IMG/VR virus record: IMGVR_UViG_2871871566_000003
Span: 1-64,000 of that record
Length of the DNA stretch: 64,000 nucleotides
DNA from: a virus
Lineage: Duplodnaviria > Caudoviricetes
Strand: one strand, 5' to 3'
Positions within the stretch are counted from its first letter, which is position 1. Every line of letters begins with the position of its first letter. A model generated the notes under the pieces. The model saw only the letters and a list, made by a program, of their open reading frames with translations, did not search any database and was not told where the DNA came from. Shown piece after piece: positions 41,544 through 58,949 of this stretch. A program made the translations under genes and the position numbers.

Positions 41544-44500
41544 TTATTCCAATCTATCCAGTTCATCCACCGCATCCATCATGATCCTGTCAATATTCTG
41601 GTTAGCGAAGTTGATGCTCTCGGTATCAGAAGACTTATCTCTGAGCTTCTTCCATCGCTTCATCTGCTTCTCTGCCAGCTCGATGATTCTAACCTTGGCA
41701 GCCTCCTTGGAGTTTTGGAATTGATAATACTCACCTATATTCGTGATTCTCTTGTCAAGTGGAACGTTCTTCGATTTCAGTCGGTCTACGTTGGCCATGG
41801 TCTTCTCCATTTCGTCTTTATAGTTATACCACTTGCTCTTTGTTCGCTGCAAGCTGCTCTGCTCGCTAGGCGTATAAAGAAGGGAACGAAGGAAAGGAAT
41901 GTCCTTGGTTTCAGTATCTTTACCGTTCTTTATTAAACCGCCAACTCGCTCAACGAATGTTGCAGCACCACCAAAATAACTTCCGTAGAAGTGATGCAAG
42001 GCAGAAGGATTTGTAACCGCATCCAAGAAGTCATTGCCTTTCATATCCTCGTTGCCCGGCGCAACATCATTTGTCAAGGCATTAACCTCCTTATTCCTAT
42101 TAATCATCCACTCTGGCGTTCCCTTATATGCAAGCATCCATGATGGCTGATTCTCATCGAACTTATTTTCTCGCTGAATAGGAGCACCCTTCCAATCGCT
42201 ATTATAAACCCACTCCAGGAAAGGAGAAGTTGCAGAAGGGGCTAACGCCTTGATGGTTTCCTGCCAAGGATGCTTGCCAAATGAAGAGTTGCCAAGATAA
42301 TCTGCTACTGGGACCAGCTGAGACATGCAGCCTACAGCGTCCATAAACGGATTCAGATACTTGTCAATATCCTTATTCTCCGTAAGGTTCGGCATCTTCT
42401 GGCTTGAAATATTCTTCGAGAAAGTCATGCCGGCAGCAAAGTCACCCAAGCCATAGAAAGCTCTCTCCTCAATCGCAAGCGGAATAGTAACAAACTCTCC
42501 ACCGCCAATATACACACAGAGGTTATTTCTTCTGATATAATCAGGCAGCTCGCCGTATGGGTCCTTCACGCCCTTTCTATCTTTCTCGTCCTCATTACTG
42601 ATGATGAAGTTATTAAGAAGGGCCATGGCCATACCACTAATAAATGGAGCACTGGCAATATAGCCGATGGTTCCAACCTTGTTGTTCTTGAAGTTCTTAA
42701 TCAGGAGATTAGTACTCTGAATACCGGCATTGAAGAACATGGAAGAATTTCTGAACCATGAAGCTGTGAATCCATAGATATTCCTTCTTGCAGTCTTAAA
42801 AGACCCCATTTCTCCATTCTTGAAGGAGTAAACAGCATTACCAGAACCATGTCGGTTAAAGTTGGTAGATACTTTCTTCGCGTCATAAACAGAACGGATA
42901 ATAGAACGGTTACTGTCTCGGCTAGCGCAATAGGTTGCGAAGCGAGCAAGATTCTCTGCAATTTCGTTTACATTCTCCAAGTTTTTGAAGATAGCATTAT
43001 AAAAGCCCTTTCCGACTTTTTGAACTCTGCTTCGTTCACCTTTAATGTGCATCTTGTATTCCTTGGTGAAGTCCTTCATGTTCTTGATTTGTACCCAACC
43101 GGTTTCGCCTCCGTTCTCCATGAACTCCTTGAAGTATCTATGTAATTTGTTGGTAGTATCAAGTGTACCATTGCGATACTTGGCATAAAGACCGAAGCCG
43201 CCGGTATCTGCAAAGTCTTTCAACTTTGAATTTCTGATTCCCTCAATAATACCAACCTTTGCATAGTACTGTTCAAATCTCTTGGTATAAACAAGACCTT
43301 CATTTGCCAAGAGGTTAGTCGATGCATACTCAAAGTCCTTGATCATATTTCGCATCACGAACTCAGGATTGTATGAAGTACAGAGTTGAGCCATATTTCT
43401 TGAAATGCTAGCGGCTACTCGTCCTGCAAGTGTATCATTCTTATGCTCCAGCAATCCATTCAACGCCTGCGCTGCTCTAGGATTTCCGTTAATAATAAAA
43501 GAATGTGTCCTTCCGGCAATCTTCACATCTACGATATGCTGCGATTTGTTCTCTGCTCTTTGGAACTTATATCCGATACTGCCCCTGCGGTAAACCTTCG
43601 ACGCCAAACCCTGTGCAGACTTCGCATTCATGTCCGTATTGAAGTCTGCAACTATCTGGTTGATTTCGTCTGGGGTAGCATCATCAGGAATATCTGGATA
43701 ACGCTCATATACGATACCAGTCATAGGGTCCTTCTCGTACCATACGCTTACTTCGGTAATCAGATTATTGTTCGAGTTGTTTCTTGCGAATCTTGCAAAC
43801 GCCATTTTGATGGCATTCATACCACTGTTCTTGATGGCTCTGTTGCCCATCGCACCAATCTGCGCCAGCACGTTTGTCTCACTCAGATACTTGTGTCCTC
43901 TCGCTCTCATAATCGTGCTTCCGATGTAACTCTTCGGGTCGCCCTGCTCAGTAATGTAGCCGTAGGTATCTTCTGCAGTAGCCTCATCATACTTTCTCAA
44001 AGGCACATACCAGTTGAACATATTCGATACATGGCCGTGCAATTCCTTACTGATGATACCATTCTTGTAATCGCTGTCAATAGAATACTGGGTAGCAGCC
44101 TTCACCTTTTCCCAATAGTCCTTCACAGCTCCCTTCTTGATGCTCTCCATCTTCGCTTCCGAATCCATCACGCTCTGAATAGCCTCGGCATCATTGTAAG
44201 GGTCAGAAGATTTCGCCACCTCCTGAATAGCGTGCATACCCGAATAGTCGTGCTCGCCAGCATCGAAGTCTGCATCAAAGTGATTTCTGATACTCTCATC
44301 CAACTGTCTGTAGTACTCCTTCAGGTCGATGTTGCCAGCCTTCAACTCGTTATCAAGATACTCCTTATCGCTATAATAACTGTTTTCCAAGAAGTCAGCA
44401 TCCTGCTTCTTCTGCTCGTCCATCCTCATCTTCTTCAGGAAGTCACGAACAAAGAACACTCTGTTTCGCTCCAAACCATGCTTGGTAATCATGTAGAGAT

Positions 44501-47500
44501 TGAAGTTTCTGATCTTCTCATCATCCTTCTTGCCATCGAAAGCATCCAGTACGCCGGCCATGGCCTTATCAAGAGGCTTCATTACATTGCGCTCAAACAT
44601 CTGAGCCGCATCACTCATCGCGCCCTGCATGGTGTTCTGCAACATATAAGGATTCTCCGAAGAAGCAATATCCTCAATCTTCTTGTCAGGCACAATCGCA
44701 TTCATCAGTTTCTTCAACGAAAGCATATTGTCCATATAGCTCTCGGTAAACATATAGCCATGCTCGTCAAGTGAACGATGGTATCTGTCAAGTGCCGTGC
44801 CGGCAGATGGGGTAGTACGGAAGTGAATCTCACCATCTGTAACCTCATTCCACTCAGCCTTGGTAAGATTATCCATACTTCTAACCTTTCCGTCATTTCC
44901 GTAGAACATGCCATCGTGCGCCACGACAGCAGGCATACGCTCATGGTCGAGACGGTATTTCACCGCCTCGGCTCTAAGTTTCCAATAAGGATCATTTGGA
45001 TTCTTCTGCAAGTTCTTGCTCAACCAGAGCAGATACTTCACATCTTTAGTATTAGGAGCAACACGATAACCGATTTCATGAAGGAAATCAGATACCTTGT
45101 TTTTGATACCATTCCAGAAGCCAGCTTCACCCTTGCCATCCTCGGCGAGTCGCGCGATACCTTCCTCAATAGCATCATAGATATTCAGAGGATTGAACTT
45201 TCTCTCCTCATCCACCAGCTTCTTCAAAGCCGCATTCTCAGGCTTATCCAAGTCGTACCACACTTCACGAAGGAACTTATCGAATCGTTCATCACCAAAC
45301 AACTCTCTCATTCCCTTGTGTCCAACTACCTCATGCCAGATAGTCTTCTCGGCAGTATATCTGTCGTGGATATTAGGCATATAAAGATGCACCTCGCCAG
45401 TCTTCTCATCATACCAGCCAGTAATCTTTCTGCCTTCCTCAATAGCAGCCTTCGCCGCCTTGTTGGTGATTTCATCAACCGATGAAACCATGTTCACCTT
45501 TGCGCCAGTCTTCTGAGCCACCTTTTCTACATGGTTTTCAACCGATGAAGTAGGGTAGTTGCCATCGCCGTGGTCCGTGCGGAACTTAGTGCCACCGTCT
45601 TTGCCCCATTCCTTGAAGGCATCCTTTGTCATTTTCACGTTGACGAACTTAGCCTGAGGGAACTCCTGTTCCAGTTCAGCCATCTGCTTCAAGAACTTCT
45701 CCTTTGTTTCAGGGTTCTGTCTGCCTTGCTCTACGGTAGTGATAGGCACACCAAGTTTTACTAACTCTCTCAACTGGTTAGGGGTAACTACGTTCCAAGG
45801 GATAGCCAATCCTGTTCCTCTCAGTTGGTCGGCGATTTTCTCAGCAACCTCCTCGTCAGGCAATATTCTTACTGCCTTTCTCCATCTAGAGAGCATCACG
45901 CTTCTCTGTCTGTCCTTTGGCAGAAGGCTGTTGACTGTTCCAGAAGTCCAAGGCACCAAGCCCACAGAGTTCTTTGCGCCCTCGGCGTGATAGCTGCTAG
46001 TCTTCTCGCTCTCAGGAATCTCCCATTCAACAACCTTGATGTTGCCTCTGGCGTAAGCACCAGAGAACTGGTCGTTCATCACCGAAGTGGAAGTGTGCAT
46101 GTAAGGGTTATAAGCCGCTGGCACTGGTCCTTCACCTGCCCCAGGGTTCTTATCGGTCTTCACAAGTTGGAACTTGCCGTTCTTCACAAGGTCCGGCCGC
46201 TCGTCTGCGCCCATCCAAGCACCAATCTCGGTAGCATCGGTACGCTTTCCGTCAATAATAGCAGCCATAGGAGAGTACAACTTTCCGTCCACCTCCTGCA
46301 TACCGCTATACATTCTGAAAGTCTTTTCCTTGTTGAGGCGGTCCAACTCGTCCTTGTCTGTAACCTTATAGGCAAATCCGTCCTGCTCAATATCATTCAT
46401 GGAAATATCATCAATGGTTTCATTGAAATCATCCATGATGTCGTTGATAGCCTTATCCATCTTATCCTTCTCAGAAACCTCAAAGAGCTTCTTCCAAGCA
46501 TCCTTCAAGCGTTGCAGGATAGAACGGTCGCCCTTTCTTGCAAACTCATGTGCTGCATTCACAACTTTATCCCAGATAGACAGGCCCATCGCCTTTCTCT
46601 GTCTAGAATCTGCCATCTGAGCAGTCAGCTCGTAAGCATCAGACAGACCGTAAGGCTCTTCTTTGAAGCGTTCCTTATCGTCCTTTACCTTGTCGTAGAT
46701 TTCGAGGATGGTCTTTACGCCCTCTATCTGCTTAGGAGTCAGCATGCCCTCAGCCTTGCCTTTCTTAACGAGATTGATAGCACCCATTGTTACCTCATGA
46801 ATCATTTCATGCAGCATAATAGTAGGGGCAGCGTAGTCTGGAGCCTTGGTCTTTGTCAGGCCATCAATATACAAATCAATGTTCCTGTAGGTGTCTGCTT
46901 CTCCTGATCTCTTCTTCGGACTCTCGGCACTTACCTTGATGTTAACACCAAGACGTTTGTTTATATCGAGAACTCTTTGGAAGAGTTTAGCCTTTCCTTT
47001 ATCTCTATTTGTTTCTTTAAAAATTCGTTCAACGGCTCCAAGTGTGAACGCTCCTCCTGGCTGCAATCCCCAAGTCTCTCTGAGATTCTTTGCTCTAGCG
47101 TCTCTATAGGCAAGTTCTCTGTCAGCGACGGCGAGAACGGTCTTATAATATTGCAGTAGATAAGAGCCTTTATTTCCCTTACCGTCGTTCTTACTACCAA
47201 GATGTCGTCCGGTATGCTGTCCTGATAACTTTTCAACTTTTCTTTCATAATCATTCTTGAAATATTCTATAGTACTTCTGCCATAATCAGAAAAATCATC
47301 CAAGGCAGAGCTTACATCATTAATAATTCCAGACTTATCTCTGTCTTCTGCATGCTCTACAATGTCTTCAATGGCAGAATCAAACTTCTTTTCAATCTGC
47401 GAAGATACGTTTTTATCTACATCTTCGGGAATGATTCTACCTTTCTTAACATCTTTTGTATCTGTTTTAGAATACTGCAAGCCTCGGTCCTCACGGAAGT

Positions 47501-50500
47501 GGGTACCTTCATCCTGAGAAGTATTGCGCTCCTCCTGTACCTTCACACCCATCTTAGACAGGCGGTCCAGTACTGGCTTCAACTGCTCAGGCTTAAACTC
47601 AGCAAGCATATTGTTGCCTCTGGTTTCGAAGTTATTGCCATTAACCAGTTTCAGCAAATCTTCATCCATGAAGTACTTGCCGCCCTTTGCCTTGCTCTTT
47701 GGCACACGAAGTTCGAAGTAGTAGCCACGATTGTTGTCTATGCGTTTCACCTTTACTTCACCATCCGATGAAGTAACCTCGTCAATACCGCCGTGCCATG
47801 ATGAAAGTTCAAACTTATCTACCACGCTGTTGATAGGTGCATCCGTAGTCAAGCCCTTAGGGTCGAATCTATCTGGCATCAAGATACCAGTCTTCACCTC
47901 GCCAGTATCAGTTGTATATTTCACCAACTGACCGCCCAAGCCCTGATCCTTGCTGTCAACCAAAGCCTGCATCAGATTACCAGTTACAATATAGCCATTC
48001 TTGCGGCTCTCATTGCTAGTCAGTCTATCCCAGTTATCAAAGTTTTGGTTCAATACTCTGAGATGGCTGTCTCCCATACCGGCAGCCTGCTTGGTCATGC
48101 GATCGATAGAACCGATAATATCCACCTTGTTTTCACCAGAACCCACCTTGCCGGCAATAGGGAAAGTAATCTTTCTTCTGCCATCCAAGGTGGCAAAAGA
48201 TACAGAAGAGGCGTTAGGCGAGAAGTTATCCGTAATCTTAATATCAATGAGTCTTCCGTAACTGTTACCGAATCCGCTCAGTTCATTTGGATTGTTCATA
48301 TCTGCAGGCAGAACGAAAGCGCTGTTAGTATCGAAGGTATCAAGCACACGCTCAAACATTTCAGCCTTAGCTTTCAGATTCTTCACCACATCGTTCAGCT
48401 TATCTTTCTCCTGCTTGTAGATGTTGTCATACTGATAGCCAGCCATCTTCTCAATCTGCTCATCGCTCATGCCCGAATCCTTCTGACCCTTCTTGCCATC
48501 TTTGATATACTTCTCCTTAGCCTTGGTTGCAGCCTTCACGGAACGATCCTCATACTTCTGAGTCTCGTCAGCAATCTTCTGGTCGAAGTACTCTTTCACG
48601 GCAGTCTTCTTCTCGGTCTTGTATTCATCCCAAGTCTTGCCGCCAGTCAAACCATTCTGCGAAGCCTTCACCTCAGAAGCCTTCATTGGCTTCTTCAAGA
48701 TGGCCATGTTCACCTTTTCTATATAGGTGTTGTCGGCAAAGGCATTATCGCCGCCCGGCTCTGCACCCTGCTTCCAAACTTCCTTGTGGAGAGTCTTAGC
48801 CTTCAAAGGCAGCTCGGTAATCTCAAGGTCATTCTCACCCATTTCGTTGAGTCGCTGAATCTCGTTGGCATAAAGCTCGCCAATCTCCTGCAACATCTTC
48901 TCCTGTTCAGAAACTCTCAGCAGAGCCATACGCCCAAGCAACTTGCTTGCATCGGCACCAGCTTCTTTTCCACCAAGCTTTCCTCCAGAAGTAACAATGA
49001 GTCTCTGAGGGTCAATAGTAGATAAATCTTCACCGAAAGAGCCTTCCCATCCGAATGGGTCTGCCATGCGAGCATAAAGGTCAAGATGTTCTGCCATGTA
49101 TTCTCTGACAACCTTATCACCATACTTGTTGATAATATCAGAAACCTCCATGTCGTTGAACTTACTCTTCTGAGAAGAAGTTGTGTTGGCATCAAGTGAC
49201 TTCAATTTAGCCTTAAACATCATCAGCAATCGCTGCTCAGATGGAATTTGAGAAACAATATACTCATATCTACCACGGTTAACCTGTCCTGTTCGATCAA
49301 TACGACCACGCATCTGTACTTCCTCGTTCACATCTGGTTGTTGCTGAACAACAATCATAGTACGTGGCTTGTGCTCTACATCGTACTCCACAGAGTCATG
49401 CAACGAAATACCTGTAGAAGCACTTCGGTTAAGAATTAAGGCATCAAGCTTGTTGGTATTAAAATCAAGGGCAAGCTTCTTTTTGTCCGTATTAGTACGT
49501 TTAACTTTTGATACGGTTCCATTTTGATTCTTAACAAACATAGTTTGTCTTCCAGTTAACTCTCCTACACGATAACCAGCTGCTTCGAGTTCGTCACGAA
49601 CAACATCAATAGGAGAGAGTGAAAGACCTGTTGAGGCATTCTTTATATTATCCTCAATTTCATGATAACGAGCAACAGCATCAGGACCTAAATCTTCAAG
49701 ATTAAAAGTGCCGAATGTCTTATTACCCATATCGTCTGTTTGATCATAGCGAAGGACGCCCTGCAATCCCTTCATCAAGACAACGCCCAAGTCTGGTGCT
49801 TCCATTTCTGCATTAGCCTCATACTGTTCCGTCTGGCTTTCATTTGTATTATTAAGGGCGATAACCACCTTTTCTCCATTCTTTAAATGCTCGATGGCAC
49901 TTTTAGCTGCTTCTCTTGCTTTCAAAGATAGAAGTACCTGCTGAACCATATTATAGGTTCTGCTTGCAAATGGCTGGTTATGAATACCAAGGTCTTTTGT
50001 TCCTTGTCTGTTTTTGATGGATGCTTGGATAGCAGCAAGTTCATCATTGCGCTTATCAAGATAAGCACCTACGTAAGTTCTTTGGAAATTGATAATATCA
50101 TTAAACAATCCGATGATACTATCATACTGTTCTCGCTGTTCTTCAACAACAACAGGATCGTCTATCGTTTTCCAGTCAATAGTCACGCCAGTCATATCTC
50201 GCTCACGGCGAATAAACTGACCGCTGGCAGTAAGTGCTTGCGACATGACTTCCTGCAAAGTAGCTCCACCACGCTTGATGGCATCAATGAGTTCGGATGG
50301 TTTCATTCCTGCCTGGTTCATAGAGGTGCGCAAAGCGTAGATAGGCATATTGTCTGGTCGCTTTGCATAGGTTGCTGATAGGAAAGTGATAGCGTTGAGC
50401 TTTGGAACAACATATTGCAAATAAGCGGAACCACTACCTTGACCTCCTGCCTTGTGGCTCTCATCCATGATAACGTTGGCATTCTTTGCTATAGCTTCCA

Positions 50501-53500
50501 AAACATCACGTTTTCTTTGTCCGTTCTTTGAACCTTTACCATTCTTTCTTACCGTTTTCTTTCCATCCTCATAATCCATAGTTCCACTAGAGAAACTATC
50601 ATACGTAGTAACGATATAGTCATATCCGTCTGGTAACTTACCATTCTTTTGAAGATAATCCATCACTCGCTCCTGCTCTTTGTCAGAAGATAATTGATAG
50701 ACTAACTTGCCTTCCGAGTCTGTCATGTCGGCAGAGTGTTCCTTGTCCTTTGCAGCCCAAATAAAAGGACGCAAGTCAGAATTACCAATACTCTTCAAAT
50801 CTCTGTACATATCGCTAAATAGAGCCTTCTTGGCTGTGATAAATACAGGAATCTTACCTTGCTTATAGGCAAAGCGAATCATGGCAGCAGCCTGTCTTCC
50901 CTTACCGATACCAGTCATGTCACCGATAATGAAAGCATTTCCTTGCTTAGCTTGATGGATTGCAAGTGCAACGGAATCTGCTTGCTCGGATGCAAGTGCA
51001 TGGTGCATATCGTCTGCATCGTTATAGCCAAGTTCATCAACCAAGAAGCTATCAACATCGCCAATCTTCTCCAAGGCTTTCTTTGTCGCTCTGGCTTGGT
51101 CGGCAGGAATAACCGAGTTGAGACTGAAAGGGTTGTTGCTTTGAGGAACGTATTTCACCTTTTCGGTACTCAACTCACGCTTAGGTGATTCTTCTTTTTT
51201 TACTCCCAGTCCATTTCCCTCTCGTGTGGGAACAGTCCGCTGAACGCTGCTGCTGGAACGTCCTTGTCCTCCTTGTTGCTTTCTATCTCCTCCTGTTCCT
51301 CTTTCGTTGCTGGTCTCATTGGCATTCCTAGCAACTGAGCCTTCAGGTACTCGCCCTCCGTTGTCCAGTCTAGAACTTGCTGAGCCAGTTCCTCTATCTG
51401 CTCCAAAGTCGGAATCTCTTCCGCTTTCCAGTTCGGCGTTATCTCCCATGTGTTCAGATGGAGTTCGTTCAGTTTCTCCCATAGGTCGCTCATCACTTCC
51501 TCCGGTTCCCAAATCTGATATGAATCCATCAGGTCCAGAGCCATGCTCCTTGTTATTTGTGACTCCGTTACCACCTCGCTCTTTTTGTCTGAGACTATCC
51601 CCGGAAACGTCAGAAACACGTTCTCTGTTGGAAAGTCCCAAGGGTTCTTTCTGCACCCCTCGTTTACGTAATATGTCATCTTCAATTCGTTTATAAAGTT
51701 CGTCATAATCTTTCACGGCTTCCGCTCTAGCATCCTTATCAACTGGTGGGAACACCTTGTGCTCAGGATCGTAATTGCGTCTTCCGTTTATTAATATAAT
51801 ACGTGTAGGATAGCTGGTTCCCTGCTTTGCATAGAGACTACCATCCACATTAATCACGTCCTCCACATTATAGTGGCTATAGAGATAACCAAGGAAAGCC
51901 TTATCCTTCGGATTCAGACTTCCGTTCTTGGCGTATTCCGTCTTGCCGCCAATAATAATAGCAGCACGACCATCGTCCTTCATGCTCTCCAAAGCATTGA
52001 TAGCCATCTGTCCTTCCAAAGAAGAAATCTTGTAGCCGTCATACTCCTTAGGGGTAGCACTACCGAATGGTGGGTTTGTTACCACCACGTCAACGTCCTT
52101 GTCTGCAAAAGGCTGGGTTCCATCCTGACTGGTCACGTTCTTGAAGCCCTGTCTTCTCAGGTTCGCCAATCGCTGGGCATCAATATCGTTCACATGTACC
52201 TTATCCATTGGCAGACCGATGGTAAGCATACCGTTGCCGGCACTTGGCTCCAGAGCACTCTCAATCACCTTACCATTGCCCTTCACATACATGTCTGCAA
52301 GGAAGGCGTAAGGGGCAGGGGTAGAGTACTGCTGTTTCATCACTCGCTCAGAATCTCTCTGGTTGAGGCTAGGCTGATTCTCATAGAGTGTCTTGATGCG
52401 TTCAAACTTCACAGCATCGTTGGTTGATTCAGAAGAAGCGATACCTCTTGCTCGCTTAACAATAGCTGTTTCAGCAAGCTCCTGAAGGTCTGTGTCCTTA
52501 ATATCCTTCAAACCAACTCTCTCAGCTATCTTTCTCAGCTCAACAATACCGTTAAACTTATGTTTGAAGCCCAACTGCAGGTTCACAACATCAATAAACC
52601 TCTTCTCAGCCATCTTTCTTTCCTCGGCAGTCTTGGAGTCGCCCACCAGATTCTCCTGATGCTTAGGCGAAGTCTTCTCGTAGTAGTCAGCCCAATCCTT
52701 CAAGCTCATGCGCTGCTCGCCATCGCGATAGCGGATATTCATCATCTGCTCATAGATAGCATCCACGTCTTCCTTCTTAAAGAGCTTGGCAGCAGGGGCA
52801 AACTCCTTGCGCATTTCCTTCACCACGTCTTCAAGATTGTGCATACCTCTCTTGATTCTCAGATAAGCATTTTCGGCCATGGCGCTCACCAGCTTAGGCA
52901 ATACTTCCAGCTGTCTAGAGTTAAGACCAACAAACGAAGCAGAAATTTCATCCTTGCCGGCATTCTTGAGCATATCCCAAAGGTCATTAACCTTCTTGTT
53001 GGAAGCTGCTACTGCTGCATCGTCAGCCTTCTGCTGAGGCTTCTTCTCTGTCTCAGCCTTAGTTTTCTTCTCCTTTCCAAAAGCTTCTGCTGCATTCTTG
53101 ATTCCCTCCATAGGGTCAGCAGATGGTTCCTTTTTTGGAGCCTCAACCTTTGGTTCAGTCTTCTGCCCTCTAGTCTTGGCAAAGATGCTTTCATAGATAG
53201 CACGATGCAAATCATCTGTCACCTCACCGTTCAGATAATCAAGAGCCATATCCTTGGACAAATCATCCACGTCTGCCTCCTTGATCTCATCCTCAGTCAG
53301 AGGATGCTCCTTCTTGAATTCCTGGGCGGCCGCCGCAATCGGGTCAAAAGTAGGGTCTGGGTTCTCTTCTTTAGGAAGGAGTGGGAGAGGTTTTTCTTTT
53401 ACCTTACCGTCAACATATTCGACAACCTCATTCAGGTCACCATACTTCTTGCCATCATACTCGTAGTATGAGCCAGTGTATTCGCCCTTCTCGTTTGGCT

Positions 53501-56500
53501 CATCAACCTTGATAACCTCCTTGTCTCCATCAATCAGAATCTTCTGCTTCATGATAGGACCATTCTTTGATGGAGTCTCGGTTTCCTCGTCAGTAACCTT
53601 AATACGACTTTCGAGTTCCTTGTTTACTAAGTCGTCTGGTTCCTCTACTCTTGTTCGTTCTGGTTCTGTTCCTGCTTCTGCTGGTTCATTTCCTCCTGAT
53701 GCTTCTTGTTGAGGTTCTTCAACGCCTGAAACATCATGGCTTCCTTCTGTTTCTGAATGTCCTGTTCCATAATCTTGCCATTTTTTAAAGTTCAAATACT
53801 CATTAATTAGCTCTTCCTTGGTAGGAGCTGCCTCAAACATATTGCCCTCGCCAGTATTTCTAGCCTTAGCGATGCGGTTGTATTCGTCAAGCAAATCTCT
53901 GAAATCAGAAACCTTGCCCTCCAAGGCTAAAGCCATCATCTGAGAGATAGAAGAGTAACGCTTAGCCGCATCCTCACCGAACATGTCTGGTGTTCTCAGC
54001 AGCGTATCAACCTTATTGCCGCCCTGTCTTGCCTCATAGAGCAATTGGATAGCCTGATCAATTTCATCACGAAGAGAGAACTCGCCCAGCTTCATGTTGT
54101 CCATTACCGAGCGGATAGCGTTGATAGCCTTATTCTTCACCGTAGAGTCGATGCCCAGCATTCTGATAGTCTCTGGCTTGAAGATTGAACCCAAAAGAAG
54201 GTTCTTCACATACTCCCTGCCTTGTGCAGAAAGTCGCTCAGGACTATCCATCATCTGTGCCACCTCGTTCTGTCCGATGATGCCTTTATCTACTAACGTC
54301 TTCACCAAGTCATTTATTGCCTTGGAATTGTTAAAGAAAGCATCAAGAGAACCATTTCCTTCAATCTCGGCAACAATCGCGCCTACCTCGTCAGAAGTCA
54401 AGGTCTTAGCCTTGGCAACCGCCAGTTCGGTATTGCTCTGAGTCTTCTTCTCGTTTCGGTTAAACTTAGCGAAGGTAGCTGCATCGTATGGCAATCTCTC
54501 ATCCGTCACCATTACCAGACGAGGATGCTCGATTCCGCTCTGCTCAATCTGCTCTCTGGTAAAGCCGAAGTTCTCGGCATTTTCCAGAAGGTCGTTGATG
54601 TATTCGCCGTCCGTGCCTTCCTTTGCAGCCTTCTGTCCTGCCATCGTTCTGCCGTTGCCATCATAAACGATACCTTCGTCAGATACAACCGGCACATTCT
54701 CGATAGCCATACCATTATACTTCATGGCAATCTGGTCGGTATTCTGCTGAGCCGCCTTGTCGTGCTCATAGTCACGATCGTTCACGGTTCTACCCTCAGC
54801 ATCGGTAGGGAATCCCTCAGATTTCTTATAGTCGTTATTCACATCATGAGAAGGAGTAAGACTTTCTGCCGGCACAATCTCATAGTGTCCCTTAATCTTG
54901 GTCTCTCCGTCAGGCAGCATTCTTGTGCGTTTGTTGCCCACAAGTCTAGGTGCATTCACAAACTTCTGTGCAGCCACGCTACCAGCCTCATGCGCACCTT
55001 CAACCTGTTCTGTCTTACCCACGGTCTCGGCAACCTTCTTGGCAGTCATAGCCTTCTTGATATTCTGAGCGTGGGTCAACTGCTTCTTGGCAGCTTCAAT
55101 AGTCTGATTCTTCAAAGTCTCCTGCTCCATGATGTCGTTAGGCTCGGCGGTATAGTCCACCTTCATCTTCTCGGCATCCTTCAAAGCCTTCTCTGCTTTC
55201 TGAATCTGTCCGTCCACTACCTTTTCAGCATTCTCCCCGAAATCCTCAGTAAGAATCTCCGCACTCTGCTCAGAAGTCATACTAGCATAGTCTGGCGTAG
55301 GTCTTCCCTTACTGTCCATAGCCATAGGAACATCAGAACCATCGGCAAACTTTCTGCTAGGCTGAGGCTGCTCTACTTGTTGAACTGAGGCATCGCCTTC
55401 GCTAGCATTTTCCTCTGCTTCTCCATCACTTCCACTATTGGCATTGTCGCCTTTTCGAATTTTTCCATCTGTTTCATTGTTACTAATCTCTTCATTTTTA
55501 TTTTCTTTAGGTTGAACTTCCTGCTGTGCCTTGGCAGCATCCTGCATAGCCTGCTCCTGTGCCGCCTGATTGTAAGGCTCAGAGTTCTTCATCTGCAATC
55601 TCTGACGATATTCTGCAGCAAACTGGTCAATAGGCTGGTTTTGAACCAGAGTAACCTCATCTGCCTTCACATAAACCAATTCCTTGGTATTAGGGTCCAG
55701 GCAGACAAGCATATCGCCGCTTCCTTCCTTAGCTCTGCCAGTAGTCTGGTCGAAAGCAACATCACCCGAACCAACAAGAAGTGTTCTTCCGCTGCTGTCT
55801 TGAACATACAGAGCCTGCTCGCCATTCATCGCATGACCGTTCAATGTTCCGTGATAGCTCCAATCAGAAATAAAGCTCTTCACGTTTTCCTCTATAGCAT
55901 CAGCAGTAGCCTGCTGCATACCCTGCACTCTAGCGTTCGCATTAATATATTGGGCAAGTGGGGTCAACTCTTCTTGGGTCAATCCATTCTGAATGAGTGC
56001 ATCGTAAATCTGTGCCGGCGTCAAGCCCTGCTGGTGCAATTTCTCAAAGGTTTGCTTGAACACATCGTTGCTATCCATCGCTGCATCAATGGCTTGCTCT
56101 GCGTTTCGAAGGTTGCGCAATTCATCAACTACCACGCCGCTGTCCGGGTTGTCCGTTCCCAGACTATGCTCCTCGGCAACCGTCTTACCTTGGCTGGCAG
56201 ACTGGTCTGCGTGTGGTCTCCAGCTAGGGAAAAGCTCATCTTCGAGTGCTCTCTTCACATGATAGAAGATTCTGTTCTCCTCATCGGTACGCTTCATTGG
56301 GTCCTTGCGCATGATTTTGTCAATATCAATAACAATGCTTCCTTCTTTACCAAGAAGTTCTTTGATAGAAGCCATGAAGTTATTAGTATAACCTTTGCTT
56401 TCTGATCTGAGGTAACCAAGCAAGCCGTTCTTATCCGCATACTTCTCCCAGTAAAGATAGAGTGCGCTCTTCGGGTTGCGCAAGTCATTAATCAGTCGGG

Positions 56501-58949
56501 CATTATTCGGGTCTGTAATATCCTTATTCTCGTCATATCCGTTTTCCTTAAGGAATCTAAACGCTAGATTAGTGACAGTTCCATCATCATCTATGAACTG
56601 CATATCCTTCATCCTTGCGTAGCCCATCAGCGACATCATATCGTCATTGTCACGATAAAGCTTCTGTTTGTAAAGAATAGCTCTGCGCTCATCGGCATTC
56701 TTATAAGAGGTACGTGTAAGCAGCGTTCCGTTCTTGGTGTATTCAAGAATCTGTTTGTTCTTCACGTCGTTCACGCTGCGGTAGCTTTTGCCTCTTGTCG
56801 TGTTAAACAGTCCCATGGCCGCATTCACCTTCTCCTTGGTGCTCTGAGAAACGTCTGGGTCGTTCATAAAATCCGTGTAAGCAGTCTTATACTTCGGGTC
56901 TCTTGGGGCTGTCTTCGATGCGCGGTCCACCTTTACGAAAGCATCCATCAGATTCTTACCCGATGCAGAAGAAATCAATTCATTCTTCTCGTCAGGAGTC
57001 AGACGAATATCCACGGCAATAGGGGAACCGTTGGCATTCTTTCCGATCACGAAATGAGGGTTGGTATTATGTGCAAGATTATACAAAGAATTTCCGATAT
57101 GAGCGTAATTCTTAGGCTCTCCTGCCTTGAATGCCCCCACCATCACCACGTCTTCAAGCCAAGTGCCAAAAGAAATGTCCTTATCGCCTGTGATATTGTC
57201 TGCAACCATCATGGTTCCAGCCTCAACGCCGAGACCCGCGGCAGTAGCACCAAGCTTCTGTGTGCCATGCAGCCATTTCTCGCTTGTGCTCTTCTCCAAG
57301 CCAGTGATACCGAACTTTGATACCCAAGGAGCCATGATAGCACCCGATACTCCGAACATCGCACCAGTGGTAGCACCATGCCCGAATCCTTCCAATGCTG
57401 CATGACCCAATGCCGATAATGAAGTATCGTCACCGGTAGATGCCTGTCCCAGAGCCGCGGTAATGCTGGAGTAGCCACCCAGATTGAGCGCACTCTTCGC
57501 CGTCCCTTCCACCAAGCCAGAAGCAATCTTCTGTGCCATCGTCATGTTTGCAGCCTTGAATGCCAACTGCTGTGCAGTCAGTTTAGTTCCCATCTTCACA
57601 ACTCCAGCCTTGGCGAGACCTTTCATCAGGACCTGCTTTCCCAAATCCACTGTCATATTAGATGCGCTTCCAGTCATACCGAGAATAGGGGAGTCCATCG
57701 CCATGTTCGCCGCCGTTGAAACGAAACGTGCGCCCATGCCAGACTTATATCCTTCGTTAGCCTTGTAGCCATTAACGCTAGGCATGTCCTCCAAACCGTC
57801 TGCAATTGCCATCGCTTCCTGCTCTCTGGCAATCTGCTCTCTCGACTTGTCTTGTCCGGCAGACAAGGTTCCCAAGATAGAATCGCTGAGTCTTCTCACC
57901 ACATACTCCGTGGCACTCTGAGGTAAAATCTCCTCGATATTCTTAACGCCCAGTATATTCTGGGCACGCTGCATCATATGAGGAGTAACATACTTGTCCA
58001 CGTACTCCTCCACGCCCATGTTCAGCTTGTCGGCACTCTGCATGATGTGCTCCTGTAATCCCTTCTGAGAGTATATTTCCTGCAACTTGGAACTGAGGGT
58101 GTCGGCAAGTACATTCTGGCGGTTCCTGATCCTGTTGTCCTGCAAATCCTTCCACGCCTTGTTTCTCAGATAGGCATCATTGCCAGCTTTCTGCAAATCC
58201 TGCTGATACTGAGACCAAGACAAATCATCAGCCTCCTTCATTGAAGGAGCAACAAGAGCATCAATCTCAGGCGCAATAGTACCATATTTGCCGTCATTCA
58301 TCGTAAATTTGTTGCCTTCAACCTCATACTGGGCGAGATTCCTTGCATCATCCTCTCTCTGCTGCTTGGCTCTAGCTTGTTTAGCCTCAGGAGTAGAAAG
58401 CTGCTGCATCGTCTCGTTGAAATTCTTGGCAGTAGGAGTTATTCTGCTTCTGCTGATAGGGGTAGCTCTCTGCTGCTCCTGACGTGCTGACTGCTCTTGT
58501 GCTCTTTGCATGCGTGCGCGCGCATTACTAGCCTGAGCCTGCTGCAATGGAGTCATTTGGTCGTTGCGCATGTGCATCAACCGCCAGTTCTGCATGTAGT
58601 CTGTACCAGAAGTAGTAGCCGTTCTAGGCTGCTGAGCCTTCTGCTGCCTTGGCTTCCGATACTGAGCTGCGACTTCCTGCGCTCTCTGCTTCATTGTCTT
58701 TGGCTTCTCGTAATGCTCTTTTTGGTAAGCCTTCATGGTGAACAGATTAAACCCTTCCTTCTGGGCTGCGCCAACATCCTTTACAGATACGTGACCACGA
58801 TCACCTGTCTTTCGGTTTACAACTTCAAACCTCGCATCAGGATAAGCTTTTGCGAATCCTTGTGGGTCTGCGTCATAATCACTCTTCCAAACCGTGTGCT
58901 TAGCACCCGATTTGTCTCTAAATATATACTTTAATATATTATCTGGCAT
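41544..58949 (-). CDS. Giant polyvalent (DarB-like) virion protein: ParB-like, N6-adenine MTase, Strawberry-notch SF2 helicase, two zincin motifs, LPD38-like C-terminus
   Basis: VYDGNGR (ParB-like); QQYSTP, LEPSAGNG, TNPPFG (MTase); GDMTGIGKGRQ, DESH, LSAT, GRIDRTGQ (helicase); HEMIH and HEVVGH; RFATY..NFNRHG..FFNAGIQS (LPD38-like). Confidence 0.85.
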   Translation of the reverse strand: MPDNILKYIFRDKSGAKHTVWKSDYDADPQGFAKAYPDARFEVVNRKTGDRGHVSVKDVGAAQKEGFNLFTMKAYQKEHYEKPKTMKQRAQEVAAQYRKPRQQKAQQPRTATTSGTDYMQNWRLMHMRNDQMTPLQQAQASNARARMQRAQEQSARQEQQRATPISRSRITPTAKNFNETMQQLSTPEAKQARAKQQREDDARNLAQYEVEGNKFTMNDGKYGTIAPEIDALVAPSMKEADDLSWSQYQQDLQKAGNDAYLRNKAWKDLQDNRIRNRQNVLADTLSSKLQEIYSQKGLQEHIMQSADKLNMGVEEYVDKYVTPHMMQRAQNILGVKNIEEILPQSATEYVVRRLSDSILGTLSAGQDKSREQIAREQEAMAIADGLEDMPSVNGYKANEGYKSGMGARFVSTAANMAMDSPILGMTGSASNMTVDLGKQVLMKGLAKAGVVKMGTKLTAQQLAFKAANMTMAQKIASGLVEGTAKSALNLGGYSSITAALGQASTGDDTSLSALGHAALEGFGHGATTGAMFGVSGAIMAPWVSKFGITGLEKSTSEKWLHGTQKLGATAAGLGVEAGTMMVADNITGDKDISFGTWLEDVVMVGAFKAGEPKNYAHIGNSLYNLAHNTNPHFVIGKNANGSPIAVDIRLTPDEKNELISSASGKNLMDAFVKVDRASKTAPRDPKYKTAYTDFMNDPDVSQSTKEKVNAAMGLFNTTRGKSYRSVNDVKNKQILEYTKNGTLLTRTSYKNADERRAILYKQKLYRDNDDMMSLMGYARMKDMQFIDDDGTVTNLAFRFLKENGYDENKDITDPNNARLINDLRNPKSALYLYWEKYADKNGLLGYLRSESKGYTNNFMASIKELLGKEGSIVIDIDKIMRKDPMKRTDEENRIFYHVKRALEDELFPSWRPHADQSASQGKTVAEEHSLGTDNPDSGVVVDELRNLRNAEQAIDAAMDSNDVFKQTFEKLHQQGLTPAQIYDALIQNGLTQEELTPLAQYINANARVQGMQQATADAIEENVKSFISDWSYHGTLNGHAMNGEQALYVQDSSGRTLLVGSGDVAFDQTTGRAKEGSGDMLVCLDPNTKELVYVKADEVTLVQNQPIDQFAAEYRQRLQMKNSEPYNQAAQEQAMQDAAKAQQEVQPKENKNEEISNNETDGKIRKGDNANSGSDGEAEENASEGDASVQQVEQPQPSRKFADGSDVPMAMDSKGRPTPDYASMTSEQSAEILTEDFGENAEKVVDGQIQKAEKALKDAEKMKVDYTAEPNDIMEQETLKNQTIEAAKKQLTHAQNIKKAMTAKKVAETVGKTEQVEGAHEAGSVAAQKFVNAPRLVGNKRTRMLPDGETKIKGHYEIVPAESLTPSHDVNNDYKKSEGFPTDAEGRTVNDRDYEHDKAAQQNTDQIAMKYNGMAIENVPVVSDEGIVYDGNGRTMAGQKAAKEGTDGEYINDLLENAENFGFTREQIEQSGIEHPRLVMVTDERLPYDAATFAKFNRNEKKTQSNTELAVAKAKTLTSDEVGAIVAEIEGNGSLDAFFNNSKAINDLVKTLVDKGIIGQNEVAQMMDSPERLSAQGREYVKNLLLGSIFKPETIRMLGIDSTVKNKAINAIRSVMDNMKLGEFSLRDEIDQAIQLLYEARQGGNKVDTLLRTPDMFGEDAAKRYSSISQMMALALEGKVSDFRDLLDEYNRIAKARNTGEGNMFEAAPTKEELINEYLNFKKWQDYGTGHSETEGSHDVSGVEEPQQEASGGNEPAEAGTEPERTRVEEPDDLVNKELESRIKVTDEETETPSKNGPIMKQKILIDGDKEVIKVDEPNEKGEYTGSYYEYDGKKYGDLNEVVEYVDGKVKEKPLPLLPKEENPDPTFDPIAAAAQEFKKEHPLTEDEIKEADVDDLSKDMALDYLNGEVTDDLHRAIYESIFAKTRGQKTEPKVEAPKKEPSADPMEGIKNAAEAFGKEKKTKAETEKKPQQKADDAAVAASNKKVNDLWDMLKNAGKDEISASFVGLNSRQLEVLPKLVSAMAENAYLRIKRGMHNLEDVVKEMRKEFAPAAKLFKKEDVDAIYEQMMNIRYRDGEQRMSLKDWADYYEKTSPKHQENLVGDSKTAEERKMAEKRFIDVVNLQLGFKHKFNGIVELRKIAERVGLKDIKDTDLQELAETAIVKRARGIASSESTNDAVKFERIKTLYENQPSLNQRDSERVMKQQYSTPAPYAFLADMYVKGNGKVIESALEPSAGNGMLTIGLPMDKVHVNDIDAQRLANLRRQGFKNVTSQDGTQPFADKDVDVVVTNPPFGSATPKEYDGYKISSLEGQMAINALESMKDDGRAAIIIGGKTEYAKNGSLNPKDKAFLGYLYSHYNVEDVINVDGSLYAKQGTSYPTRIILINGRRNYDPEHKVFPPVDKDARAEAVKDYDELYKRIEDDILRKRGVQKEPLGLSNRERVSDVSGDSLRQKERGGNGVTNNKEHGSGPDGFISDLGTGGSDERPMGETERTPSEHMGDNAELESGRDSDFGADRGTGSASSRLDNGGRVPEGSVARNANETSNERGTGGDRKQQGGQGRSSSSVQRTVPTREGNGLGVKKEESPKRELSTEKVKYVPQSNNPFSLNSVIPADQARATKKALEKIGDVDSFLVDELGYNDADDMHHALASEQADSVALAIHQAKQGNAFIIGDMTGIGKGRQAAAMIRFAYKQGKIPVFITAKKALFSDMYRDLKSIGNSDLRPFIWAAKDKEHSADMTDSEGKLVYQLSSDKEQERVMDYLQKNGKLPDGYDYIVTTYDSFSSGTMDYEDGKKTVRKNGKGSKNGQRKRDVLEAIAKNANVIMDESHKAGGQGSGSAYLQYVVPKLNAITFLSATYAKRPDNMPIYALRTSMNQAGMKPSELIDAIKRGGATLQEVMSQALTASGQFIRRERDMTGVTIDWKTIDDPVVVEEQREQYDSIIGLFNDIINFQRTYVGAYLDKRNDELAAIQASIKNRQGTKDLGIHNQPFASRTYNMVQQVLLSLKAREAAKSAIEHLKNGEKVVIALNNTNESQTEQYEANAEMEAPDLGVVLMKGLQGVLRYDQTDDMGNKTFGTFNLEDLGPDAVARYHEIEDNIKNASTGLSLSPIDVVRDELEAAGYRVGELTGRQTMFVKNQNGTVSKVKRTNTDKKKLALDFNTNKLDALILNRSASTGISLHDSVEYDVEHKPRTMIVVQQQPDVNEEVQMRGRIDRTGQVNRGRYEYIVSQIPSEQRLLMMFKAKLKSLDANTTSSQKSKFNDMEVSDIINKYGDKVVREYMAEHLDLYARMADPFGWEGSFGEDLSTIDPQRLIVTSGGKLGGKEAGADASKLLGRMALLRVSEQEKMLQEIGELYANEIQRLNEMGENDLEITELPLKAKTLHKEVWKQGAEPGGDNAFADNTYIEKVNMAILKKPMKASEVKASQNGLTGGKTWDEYKTEKKTAVKEYFDQKIADETQKYEDRSVKAATKAKEKYIKDGKKGQKDSGMSDEQIEKMAGYQYDNIYKQEKDKLNDVVKNLKAKAEMFERVLDTFDTNSAFVLPADMNNPNELSGFGNSYGRLIDIKITDNFSPNASSVSFATLDGRRKITFPIAGKVGSGENKVDIIGSIDRMTKQAAGMGDSHLRVLNQNFDNWDRLTSNESRKNGYIVTGNLMQALVDSKDQGLGGQLVKYTTDTGEVKTGILMPDRFDPKGLTTDAPINSVVDKFELSSWHGGIDEVTSSDGEVKVKRIDNNRGYYFELRVPKSKAKGGKYFMDEDLLKLVNGNNFETRGNNMLAEFKPEQLKPVLDRLSKMGVKVQEERNTSQDEGTHFREDRGLQYSKTDTKDVKKGRIIPEDVDKNVSSQIEKKFDSAIEDIVEHAEDRDKSGIINDVSSALDDFSDYGRSTIEYFKNDYERKVEKLSGQHTGRHLGSKNDGKGNKGSYLLQYYKTVLAVADRELAYRDARAKNLRETWGLQPGGAFTLGAVERIFKETNRDKGKAKLFQRVLDINKRLGVNIKVSAESPKKRSGEADTYRNIDLYIDGLTKTKAPDYAAPTIMLHEMIHEVTMGAINLVKKGKAEGMLTPKQIEGVKTILEIYDKVKDDKERFKEEPYGLSDAYELTAQMADSRQRKAMGLSIWDKVVNAAHEFARKGDRSILQRLKDAWKKLFEVSEKDKMDKAINDIMDDFNETIDDISMNDIEQDGFAYKVTDKDELDRLNKEKTFRMYSGMQEVDGKLYSPMAAIIDGKRTDATEIGAWMGADERPDLVKNGKFQLVKTDKNPGAGEGPVPAAYNPYMHTSTSVMNDQFSGAYARGNIKVVEWEIPESEKTSSYHAEGAKNSVGLVPWTSGTVNSLLPKDRQRSVMLSRWRKAVRILPDEEVAEKIADQLRGTGLAIPWNVVTPNQLRELVKLGVPITTVEQGRQNPETKEKFLKQMAELEQEFPQAKFVNVKMTKDAFKEWGKDGGTKFRTDHGDGNYPTSSVENHVEKVAQKTGAKVNMVSSVDEITNKAAKAAIEEGRKITGWYDEKTGEVHLYMPNIHDRYTAEKTIWHEVVGHKGMRELFGDERFDKFLREVWYDLDKPENAALKKLVDEERKFNPLNIYDAIEEGIARLAEDGKGEAGFWNGIKNKVSDFLHEIGYRVAPNTKDVKYLLWLSKNLQKNPNDPYWKLRAEAVKYRLDHERMPAVVAHDGMFYGNDGKVRSMDNLTKAEWNEVTDGEIHFRTTPSAGTALDRYHRSLDEHGYMFTESYMDNMLSLKKLMNAIVPDKKIEDIASSENPYMLQNTMQGAMSDAAQMFERNVMKPLDKAMAGVLDAFDGKKDDEKIRNFNLYMITKHGLERNRVFFVRDFLKKMRMDEQKKQDADFLENSYYSDKEYLDNELKAGNIDLKEYYRQLDESIRNHFDADFDAGEHDYSGMHAIQEVAKSSDPYNDAEAIQSVMDSEAKMESIKKGAVKDYWEKVKAATQYSIDSDYKNGIISKELHGHVSNMFNWYVPLRKYDEATAEDTYGYITEQGDPKSYIGSTIMRARGHKYLSETNVLAQIGAMGNRAIKNSGMNAIKMAFARFARNNSNNNLITEVSVWYEKDPMTGIVYERYPDIPDDATPDEINQIVADFNTDMNAKSAQGLASKVYRRGSIGYKFQRAENKSQHIVDVKIAGRTHSFIINGNPRAAQALNGLLEHKNDTLAGRVAASISRNMAQLCTSYNPEFVMRNMIKDFEYASTNLLANEGLVYTKRFEQYYAKVGIIEGIRNSKLKDFADTGGFGLYAKYRNGTLDTTNKLHRYFKEFMENGGETGWVQIKNMKDFTKEYKMHIKGERSRVQKVGKGFYNAIFKNLENVNEIAENLARFATYCASRDSNRSIIRSVYDAKKVSTNFNRHGSGNAVYSFKNGEMGSFKTARRNIYGFTASWFRNSSMFFNAGIQSTNLLIKNFKNNKVGTIGYIASAPFISGMAMALLNNFIISNEDEKDRKGVKDPYGELPDYIRRNNLCVYIGGGEFVTIPLAIEERAFYGLGDFAAGMTFSKNISSQKMPNLTENKDIDKYLNPFMDAVGCMSQLVPVADYLGNSSFGKHPWQETIKALAPSATSPFLEWVYNSDWKGAPIQRENKFDENQPSWMLAYKGTPEWMINRNKEVNALTNDVAPGNEDMKGNDFLDAVTNPSALHHFYGSYFGGAATFVERVGGLIKNGKDTETKDIPFLRSLLYTPSEQSSLQRTKSKWYNYKDEMEKTMANVDRLKSKNVPLDKRITNIGEYYQFQNSKEAAKVRIIELAEKQMKRWKKLRDKSSDTESINFANQNIDRIMMDAVDELDRLE
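46961..47248 (-). CDS. Candidate nested +1-frame ORF D (95 aa)
   Basis: MKEKLKSYQ...LEPLNEFLKKQIEIKERL; lies under a G/R/K-rich linker of the giant protein. Confidence 0.35.
   Translation of the reverse strand: MKEKLKSYQDSIPDDILVVRTTVREIKALIYCNIIRPFSPSLTENLPIETLEQRISERLGDCSQEERSHLEPLNEFLKKQIEIKERLNSSKEFSI
51200..51706 (-). CDS. Candidate nested +1-frame ORF C (168 aa, acidic helical)
   Basis: LDLMDSYQIWEPEEVMSDLWEKLNEL ... TLEQIEELAQQVLDW; host frame here is a G/S/R/D linker. Confidence 0.5.
   Translation of the reverse strand: MTNFINELKMTYYVNEGCRKNPWDFPTENVFLTFPGIVSDKKSEVVTESQITRSMALDLMDSYQIWEPEEVMSDLWEKLNELHLNTWEITPNWKAEEIPTLEQIEELAQQVLDWTTEGEYLKAQLLGMPMRPATKEEQEEIESNKEDKDVPAAAFSGLFPHEREMDWE
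53645..53770 (-). CDS. Candidate nested +1-frame ORF B (41 aa)
   Basis: MEQDIQKQKEAMMFQALKNLNKKHQEEMNQQKQEQNQNEQE*. Confidence 0.4.
   Translation of the reverse strand: MEQDIQKQKEAMMFQALKNLNKKHQEEMNQQKQEQNQNEQE
55373..55495 (-). CDS. Candidate nested +1-frame ORF A (40 aa)
   Basis: MKRLVTMKQMEKFEKATMPIVEVMEKQRKMLAKAMPQFNK* preceded by AAAATAAAA. Confidence 0.45.
   Translation of the reverse strand: MKRLVTMKQMEKFEKATMPIVEVMEKQRKMLAKAMPQFNK

Follow-up and report, generated by a model that had tools for sequence, protein, structure and literature searches.

Do the low-complexity linkers of a giant phage protein conceal small genes in another reading frame? The question is raised by a stretch of 64,000 nucleotides (positions 1 to 64,000 of the IMG/VR virus record IMGVR_UViG_2871871566_000003, which comprises 75.7 kb; Duplodnaviria, Caudoviricetes), referred to here as the window. 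The phage is a Segatella/Prevotella podophage, and one of its genes encodes a polyvalent protein as defined by Iyer et al. 2017 (PMC5512222). A preliminary description of the window pointed to four open reading frames (ORFs) nested in the +1 frame of this host gene, each under an inter-domain linker, and proposed that the linkers are by-products of overprinted small genes, possibly inhibitors or chaperones of the adjacent domains. The four ORFs, here called A, B, C and D (Table 1), are present as described: all lie wholly inside the host gene, on its strand and in its +1 frame. Comparison with relatives separates them. As a whole, the observations are best explained, and we hold this with considerable confidence, by a methyltransferase-helicase linker in the polyvalent host protein that is dual-coding with ORF C, by probable translation of ORF B, and by ORFs A and D being non-coding.

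The comparison is based on 80 homologous giant genes of 5000-6100 codons from IMG/VR contigs, 57-90% identical overall, which were aligned by codon with the gene of the window (81 genes). Nucleotide diversity (pi) was obtained for each host codon position in windows of 30 codons, host position 1 being position 3 of the +1 frame. Gene-wide, the diversity at host positions 1, 2 and 3 is 0.135, 0.101 and 0.288, respectively. In an unbiased scan of 578 windows, the diversity at first positions exceeds that at third positions (pi1 > pi3) only at host amino acids 1721-1760 and 2411-2590, which are the extents of ORFs B and C. ORF C has a pi1/pi3 ratio of 1.59 and ORF B one of 1.32, as compared with 0.82 in A, 0.76 in D and values between 0.17 and 0.77 in every other +1 ORF of at least 55 codons, including the Arg/Leu-rich stretch that the preliminary description had regarded as junk. 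The diversity at fourfold-degenerate sites (pi4), 0.269 gene-wide, falls to 0.037 in C (67 sites) and 0.045 in B (23 sites), which is lower than in all 968 and all 970 control windows of equal size, respectively; A is found at the 6.7th percentile, which is not significant, and D, at 0.353 across all alleles, is unremarkable. Of the comparative signatures expected from overprinting, constraint on host synonymous sites is accordingly seen for C and B, but not for A and D, and conservation of an open +1 frame divides the ORFs in the same manner (81 of 81 homologues for C and 76 of 78 for B, but only 21 of 77 for A and 31 of 62 for D). A scan of +1 identity relative to host identity along the host alignment was set aside, being usable only for the window and its relative L002, as the hypervariable regions align poorly.

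Single-base differences within ORF C are synonymous in the +1 frame in 61% of cases and in the host frame in 18%, as compared with 85% host-synonymous and 9% +1-synonymous differences in the flanking methyltransferase and helicase domains. The ratio of nonsynonymous to synonymous substitution rates (dN/dS, NG86) ranges from 0.17 to 0.54 in the ORF C frame (0.17 for the window and L002, 0.21 for L065 and L070, and 0.28 for L003 and L047), and from 1.2 to 4.0 in the host frame over the same bases, where the flanking domains give 0.02-0.18. Over ORF C, neither the +2 frame nor any of the three antisense frames is open, and the third frame carries 14-20 stops. With the codon usage of the gene, 12-13 host-frame stops would be expected over the ORF C peptide, and 3-6 when the codons of ORF C itself are shuffled; the fraction of such shuffles that leave the host frame free of stops is only 0-1.75% in each of eight lineages, whereas all 81 genes have it open. 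Judged by these shuffles, the host frame over ORF C is actively kept open. On the evidence of the substitution patterns, a single stretch of DNA here holds two maintained frames, with selection on the amino acids of the embedded frame and on stop avoidance alone in the host frame. Because it is selected only to stay free of stops, the host frame would read as a fast-changing, low-complexity tether.

The two products of the overlap also differ in composition. The host stretch is rich in Gly, Ser, Arg, Asp and Glu (18% Gly, 12% Ser and 10.5% Arg) and has no Trp, and ORF C has 15.5% Glu, 11% Leu and 3.2% Trp. ORF C is strongly acidic, with an isoelectric point of 4.05-4.4, 29-35 Asp and Glu against 7-16 Lys and Arg, and a net charge of about -20, although this acidity may be partly forced by the overlapping frame. 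Taken by its pattern of substitution, ORF C is clearly a genuine overprinted protein-coding gene. The idea that a linker arises as the by-product of an overprinted small gene consequently holds for ORF C, given the low dN/dS in its +1 frame, and probably for ORF B, but not for A and D. Codon usage gives contradictory indications as to which frame is older, since codon frequency favours ORF C (0.45 vs 0.28) and relative synonymous codon usage favours the host frame (0.34 vs 0.06).

Two in-frame ATG codons are candidates for the start of ORF C. A +1 stop is found between the first (51706) and the second (51679) in 4 of the 81 homologues, while the second ATG, followed by an open +1 frame of 137-159 codons, is kept in all of them. 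For this reason 51679 is the likely start, and 51706 is probably not a universal one. The leaders of the genes of this phage have no Shine-Dalgarno sequence, as is usual in Bacteroidota, and an A+T fraction of 0.65-1.0 in the last 20 nucleotides. With a value of 0.75, the AT-rich leader of ATG 51679 resembles those of the other genes, from which we infer that ORF C is initiated independently. A sigma-70 promoter scan, with a model that is not suited to Bacteroidota, remained at chance level. Some 20 codons at 51843-51902 in the window (host amino acids 2350-2369, in the methyltransferase), 135-195 nucleotides upstream of ORF C, are almost devoid of synonymous variation; this block could be an internal promoter, or simply reflect low diversity of the region.

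Table 1. Position of the host gene, the nested ORFs and the dual-coding stretch in the window
Feature	Position	Strand	Description
Host gene	41544-58949	minus	Polyvalent protein; single ORF of 5801 codons
Dual-coding stretch	51174-51719	minus	Host amino acids 2411-2592; linker between methyltransferase and helicase; host synonymous sites nearly invariant
ORF C	51200-51679	minus	Nested +1 gene; 159 codons and a stop from the second ATG, which is universally conserved
Optional N-terminal extension of ORF C	51680-51706	minus	9 codons, from the first ATG at 51706
ORF B	53645-53770	minus	Nested +1 ORF; 41 codons and a stop; core KEAMMFQALKNLNKKHQEE; probable small gene
ORF A	55373-55540	minus	+1 ORF with two possible starts, 55495 (40 codons) and 55540 (55 codons); attributed to the composition of the linker
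ORF D	46961-47254	minus	+1 ORF, 95-97 codons; unsupported as a gene; inside a hypervariable cassette

Relatives of ORF C are found outside the giant gene. A profile built from 11 diverse +1 translations matched 135 called proteins, most of which come from small pieces of this giant gene. Three of them, P0112, P0116 and P0110, are, however, separate genes of 130-141 residues, flanked by intergenic DNA on both sides, that share about 60% identity with the nested form found most often. Besides a TraG-type coupling protein, their contigs encode HicA, a DdmD-like helicase-nuclease and a PbeA/type-IV-restriction-like helicase, and appear to be conjugative-element-like. In the 20-kb loci examined, no homologue of the giant protein occurs within 10 kb of the free-standing copies. 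A remnant of the host frame can still be recognised in L082 (NYGKLFKRIEDGILH, compared with DYDELYKRIEDDILR), where the equivalent of the host frame has four stops inside the gene and more just upstream, and ORF C is intact. In L082 (537-12024), L085 and L091-L093 there is a conserved cluster of a DdmD-like protein of 1231 residues, a 667-residue protein, a PbeA/type-IV-restriction-like helicase, three small ORFs and the ORF C homologue, with HicA, a reverse transcriptase or a TraG coupling protein nearby.

Distant members of the family, about 25% identical, are nested as well, with a conserved YDELYKRVNDDIL upstream and the helicase P-loop downstream; such copies are located in L088, L089 and L095. 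In a scan of contigs with P0112 alone as query, a Segatella copri metagenome-assembled genome was found to hold one locus with a nested relative of ORF C. In L090 (883-1389; P0108 and P0123), the N-terminus KYDELFSELKMIYY looks like the result of a one-base frameshift that joins YDEL of the host frame to the frame of ORF C. This variant belongs to a cluster of 141 member sequences, and its context comes from a contig of 2 kb only.

An AlphaFold model of P0112, based on an alignment of 28 sequences that are mostly +1 translations, has a predicted local distance difference test score (pLDDT) of 92.5 and a predicted template modelling score of 0.87, and the predicted fold is that of an alpha/beta protein in which an N-terminal beta-hairpin is followed by helices. 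An earlier model of the ORF C of the window itself, from 11 sequences, was poor (pLDDT 58), which makes the PDB search with that model meaningless. For the P0112 model, no convincing structural relative was found in the PDB (Foldseek and VIA-align wide) or in BFVD, the best PDB Z score being 3.4 and no Foldseek match reaching E <=0.001. Searches of the ESM Atlas with the ORF C family gave unnamed clusters only, below 0.9, and neither GenBank phages (blastn of the region and tblastn of P0112) nor PLSDB plasmids (tblastn of P0112) gave a match. Membership in the TnpV family was considered and rejected, as no Pfam family was found at E up to 1. By these comparisons ORF C belongs to a previously undescribed protein family.

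As for ORF C, the host fourfold third positions at ORF B are almost invariant, in this case from about 9 codons (approximately 27 nucleotides) before the ATG to the +1 stop, after which they become variable again, and the host first positions vary freely (G/A, A/C). The ATG is in place in the homologues, and the antisense frame in codon-complement register is open in only 2 of 78. In deep pairs (the window, L002, L070 and L071), the 20-codon core of ORF B has 6-10 host differences at first, 5-9 at second and 1-4 at third positions, and the +1 identity equals or exceeds the host identity in every such pair. The fraction of synonymous differences is 0.40 in the +1 frame and 0.32 in the host frame, or 0.48 and 0.34 within the main allele. 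With this pattern of variation, ORF B is probably coding. ORF B-like peptides that have been called in public collections were discarded as independent support, since they come from contigs in which the giant gene went uncalled. At 53841 on the minus strand of the window, 71 nucleotides upstream of the start of ORF B, a Bacteroidota -7-like motif, TATGTTTG, is found; it overlaps the conserved host residues N-M-F, so its conservation is uninformative.

Synonymous constraint can have other origins, and an alternative that mainly concerns ORFs B and D is that it stems from an allele that has spread recently or from a nucleic-acid element, for which a promoter inside the gene, a structured RNA or a hot spot of recombination would be candidates. 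ORF B spans merely 123 nucleotides and most of its copies are near-identical, ORF D has low diversity at all three codon positions in one allele group, as for a young cassette, and the mosaic structure of the gene has a breakpoint where ORF C begins, all of which would agree with such an origin. It does not, however, predict a three-base periodicity in which the host first positions are free and the third positions fixed. Furthermore, the constrained block at ORF B extends precisely to the +1 stop and the pattern is seen again in lineages that have diverged deeply, and for ORF C the protein-level evidence excludes a nucleic-acid element. We consider this explanation improbable, and retain a coding role for C, and probably for B, as the preferred interpretation.

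A different alternative is the original proposal that all four ORFs are real genes and form a gene-inside-gene immunity set. The shared +1 frame is in its favour, but the four-gene set breaks down at A and D. At ORF A, the +1 peptide of the window is confined to about 16 sequences of a single minority allele. In the majority allele, the +1 frame is interrupted by three stops and gives a 28-codon peptide with a repeat rich in Arg, Lys, His, Ile and Pro. The synonymous fraction at A is 0.36 in the host frame against 0.19 in the +1 frame, and it is very unlikely that A is a coding gene. In the linker A alleles of L039, L040 and L046, the +1 peptide contains VLKNLNKAQKK, which resembles ALKNLNKKHQE in the core of ORF B, a likeness that suggests related linker modules.

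ORF D is located in a hypervariable cassette (46900-47300; also in L005, L011, L015, L017, L048 and L070) with at least four allele classes. Each class has its own +1 ORF of 75-149 codons, and some of the +1 peptides share IETLEQ.IS....DC. The occurrence of +1 ORFs in the other alleles could be taken to support a set of four genes, as could the low synonymous diversity of ORF D in its own group of 22 sequences (0.04-0.09, compared with 0.15-0.33 in the flanks), which is a caveat in favour of D. On the other hand, host-synonymous changes outnumber +1-synonymous changes (fractions of 0.46 and 0.20 overall, and 0.42 and 0.33 within the 22-sequence group), dN/dS is similar in both frames, and the +1 identity is below the host identity in deep pairs, so that no signal of selection on the +1 frame is seen. 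The low diversity is explained more simply by a young cassette, exchanged recently and under relaxed host constraint, than by coding, and we regard D as an unlikely gene, if somewhat less so than A. Most likely, A and D are non-coding consequences of host-frame composition and of young hypervariable alleles. As the analysis also yielded no evidence of an immunity function, the existence of a complete set of four genes is highly improbable.

ORF C might instead be reached by a programmed +1 frameshift, which would yield a truncated ParB-methyltransferase protein that ends in an ORF C domain. The approximately 40 nucleotides before ATG 51679 are invariant even at host synonymous sites, and include CTT TAT AAA, which resembles some +1 shift sites. 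Such a route is nevertheless unlikely because +1 stops sit directly upstream of ORF C: all homologues have one 3 codons before the first ATG, and 4 have a further one 2 codons before the second, which leaves almost no room for a shift site. The frame of ORF C is thus hardly accessible from the host frame without a start of its own, the ATG is universally kept, the free-standing copies make the protein alone, and no longer, fused forms turned up, the last being weak evidence. Taken together, frameshifting is highly improbable.

How the four ORFs compare with chance within a single sequence was assessed from 2000 synonymous shuffles of this one gene. The depletion of +1 stop codons that overprinting might produce is not seen, as 271 stops are observed against 255 +/- 8 in the shuffles. 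There are 34 +1 ORFs of at least 40 codons in the host gene where 39.6 are expected, and a +1 ORF of at least 170 codons appears in 13.6% of the shuffles. The intervals of A, B, C and D stay open in 92%, 62%, 4.9% and 17%, respectively. Stops in the +1 frame arise only where a host codon ending in TA or TG (Leu, Ile, Val or Met) is followed by a codon starting with A or G. Hydrophilic linkers that lack Leu, Ile, Val and Met codons are therefore open in +1 by construction, and hence A and B are open in most shuffles. The NE, YG, YD and YE contexts in which the preliminary description saw the ORFs begin are indeed present, but they are automatic and carry no special signal, because an ATG in +1 can form only where AT ends one host codon and G begins the next. 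Apart from the second ATG of ORF C, alternative starts are available for A at 55540 and for D at 47254. The low complexity of the host frame (Gly, Ser, Asp, Arg and Glu) is likewise confirmed over A, B and C, but over D the host frame is ordinary and protein-like. Pfam gave no family for the four ORFs at E up to 1, except for one chance-level match for A. Within the single sequence, no ORF of the four exceeds chance, and it is the comparison with relatives alone that lifts C, and probably B, above it. That none of the four is a gene, and that they are open simply for want of Leu, Ile, Val and Met codons, matches these counts and is the best reading for A and a likely one for D, but it is contradicted for C, where it leaves the frozen fourfold sites, the inverted position diversity, the +1-synonymous differences, the kept ATG, the intact free-standing homologues and the confident fold unexplained, and as an account of all four ORFs it can practically be dismissed.

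Several points weigh against the dual-coding interpretation, or at least against its details. The aligned sequences are phylogenetically related, so the counts given above are not independent events. ORF B, short as it is, is represented mostly by closely similar sequences, and its synonymous fractions alone are not decisive. The free-standing copies of ORF C are near-identical, with a dN/dS of about 0.9 on very few changes, and their maintenance is indicated by intactness and abundance. Runs labelled as RNA proved to be assembled contigs (22-34 kb, possibly DNA, with another ORF C allele), from which transcription starts and ribosome occupancy are not readable. Pfam, NCBIfam and PHROG name no family for ORF C or its relatives, and PADLOC gave one marginal match (E 0.001); the family and structure searches thus assign no function to it.

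Some indications of function come from the inheritance of ORF C. Between the window and L003, the DNA identity is 92-98% in the methyltransferase, about 40% in ORF C and 52-71% in the helicase. In the region 50933-51719 of the window, the mosaic breakpoint coincides with the conserved junction just before ORF C, and from ORF C onward the window is approximately 40-70% identical to L003 and closest to L002. In RNA-labelled contigs of relatives, the segment corresponding to 50933-51665 is replaced by about 690 unrelated bases. For distances in ORF C, the Spearman correlation with those in the helicase module is 0.75-0.81, at a separation of 600 codons too, whereas it falls to 0.34 for the adjacent methyltransferase, although the pairs are not independent. 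Because of this difference in correlation, ORF C seems to be co-inherited with the helicase, a hint that it travels with the downstream helicase module. The free-standing copies, with no homologue of the giant protein within 10 kb, hint, for their part, against an obligate partnership in cis, and these copies among defence genes, together with the acidity of the protein, would fit an anti-defence or DNA-mimic role.

In the dual-coding interpretation, the polyvalent protein would be packaged in the virion and ejected into the host cell, and the linker would be DNA whose +1 frame holds the complete gene for a folded, acidic protein of about 140-160 residues. ORF C would be translated independently from the conserved internal ATG, as ORF B probably is from its own, and act as a free small protein. 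It could serve as a partner or regulator of the co-inherited helicase module, or as an acidic anti-defence effector, and we weight these two roles about equally. A more far-reaching scenario is that giant polyvalent genes of gut phages arise when small pre-existing genes are read through in another frame, which would make some linkers the shadow of embedded genes. ORF C would then be a safety catch, or cognate regulator, for the helicase module with which it travels, and would be produced from the same transcript while the phage is being made in the cell. We offer this as a speculation that is rather unlikely to be correct. If a regulator role holds true, the locus would be a gene-inside-gene partner system as initially imagined.

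The host gene combines several unrelated effector domains in one phage polypeptide. Pfam identifies a ddrB-ParB domain (amino acids 1350-1477), a methyltransferase (MTS; 2237-2339), a Strawberry-notch-type helicase composed of AAA_34 (2668-2893) and Helicase_C_4 (approximately 3127-3378), and LPD38 (approximately 5463-5686). Virion genes for an SU10-type capsid and a P22-type portal are located close by. On the plus strand over the host gene, the antisense frame in codon-complement register contains no more than 67 stops, with ORFs as long as 456 codons. This paucity of stops is a compositional effect, and nothing in the diversity patterns points to antisense coding.

Gene callers never report genes that are nested out of frame inside longer genes, which is why a conserved family, predicted to be folded and carried by more than 80 gut-phage genomes, is absent from annotation. 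The locus also indicates that what looks like a disordered and rapidly evolving linker, with a dN/dS above 1, can be no more than a second gene read passively, and such misread linkers matter for positive-selection scans and disorder predictions in giant phage proteins. ORF C itself is a testable candidate, as a small protein at the methylase-helicase junction of an anti-defence polyprotein that also occurs by itself beside defence genes, in contigs resembling conjugative elements.

Polyvalent proteins of phages and conjugative elements, including a methylase-helicase dyad, were described by Iyer et al. 2017 (PMC5512222). The host gene resembles these in its ddrB-ParB, methyltransferase, Strawberry-notch helicase and LPD38 domains and in its position beside virion genes. 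In contrast to that account (PMC5512222), where a text search finds no mention of overlapping or nested genes, the junction of the dyad here carries a second gene. A literature search found no publication on nested genes in the linkers of polyvalent proteins. Ocr and ArdA are acidic DNA-mimic anti-restriction proteins. ORF C is similar to these in being small, strongly acidic by net charge, carried on mobile elements and found in an anti-defence context, but differs in having no sequence-family or structural match, an absence that does not exclude a mimic.

With respect to gene organisation, the lipoprotein Rz1 of phage lambda is encoded by a gene embedded in Rz, on the same strand and in the +1 frame; both proteins are produced, and the Rz/Rz1 complex acts in lysis. 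The arrangement of Rz/Rz1, in which a large phage gene fully contains a small one that shares its strand and is read in +1, is found here as well. The host is in this case a polyvalent protein of 5801 codons, the embedded product is a predicted soluble, acidic alpha/beta protein, the overlapping part of the host is a passenger linker, and there is no homology between the two systems. Genes B, K and E of phiX174 are further examples of overprinting. The production of two proteins from one stretch of DNA in different frames has been reviewed for viruses (PMC8227390). The locus shares with viral overprinting that one frame is structured and the other biased or disordered, and that constraint on synonymous sites is diagnostic. 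It differs in that it is here the embedded protein that is predicted to be structured, and the disordered product belongs to the giant host gene.

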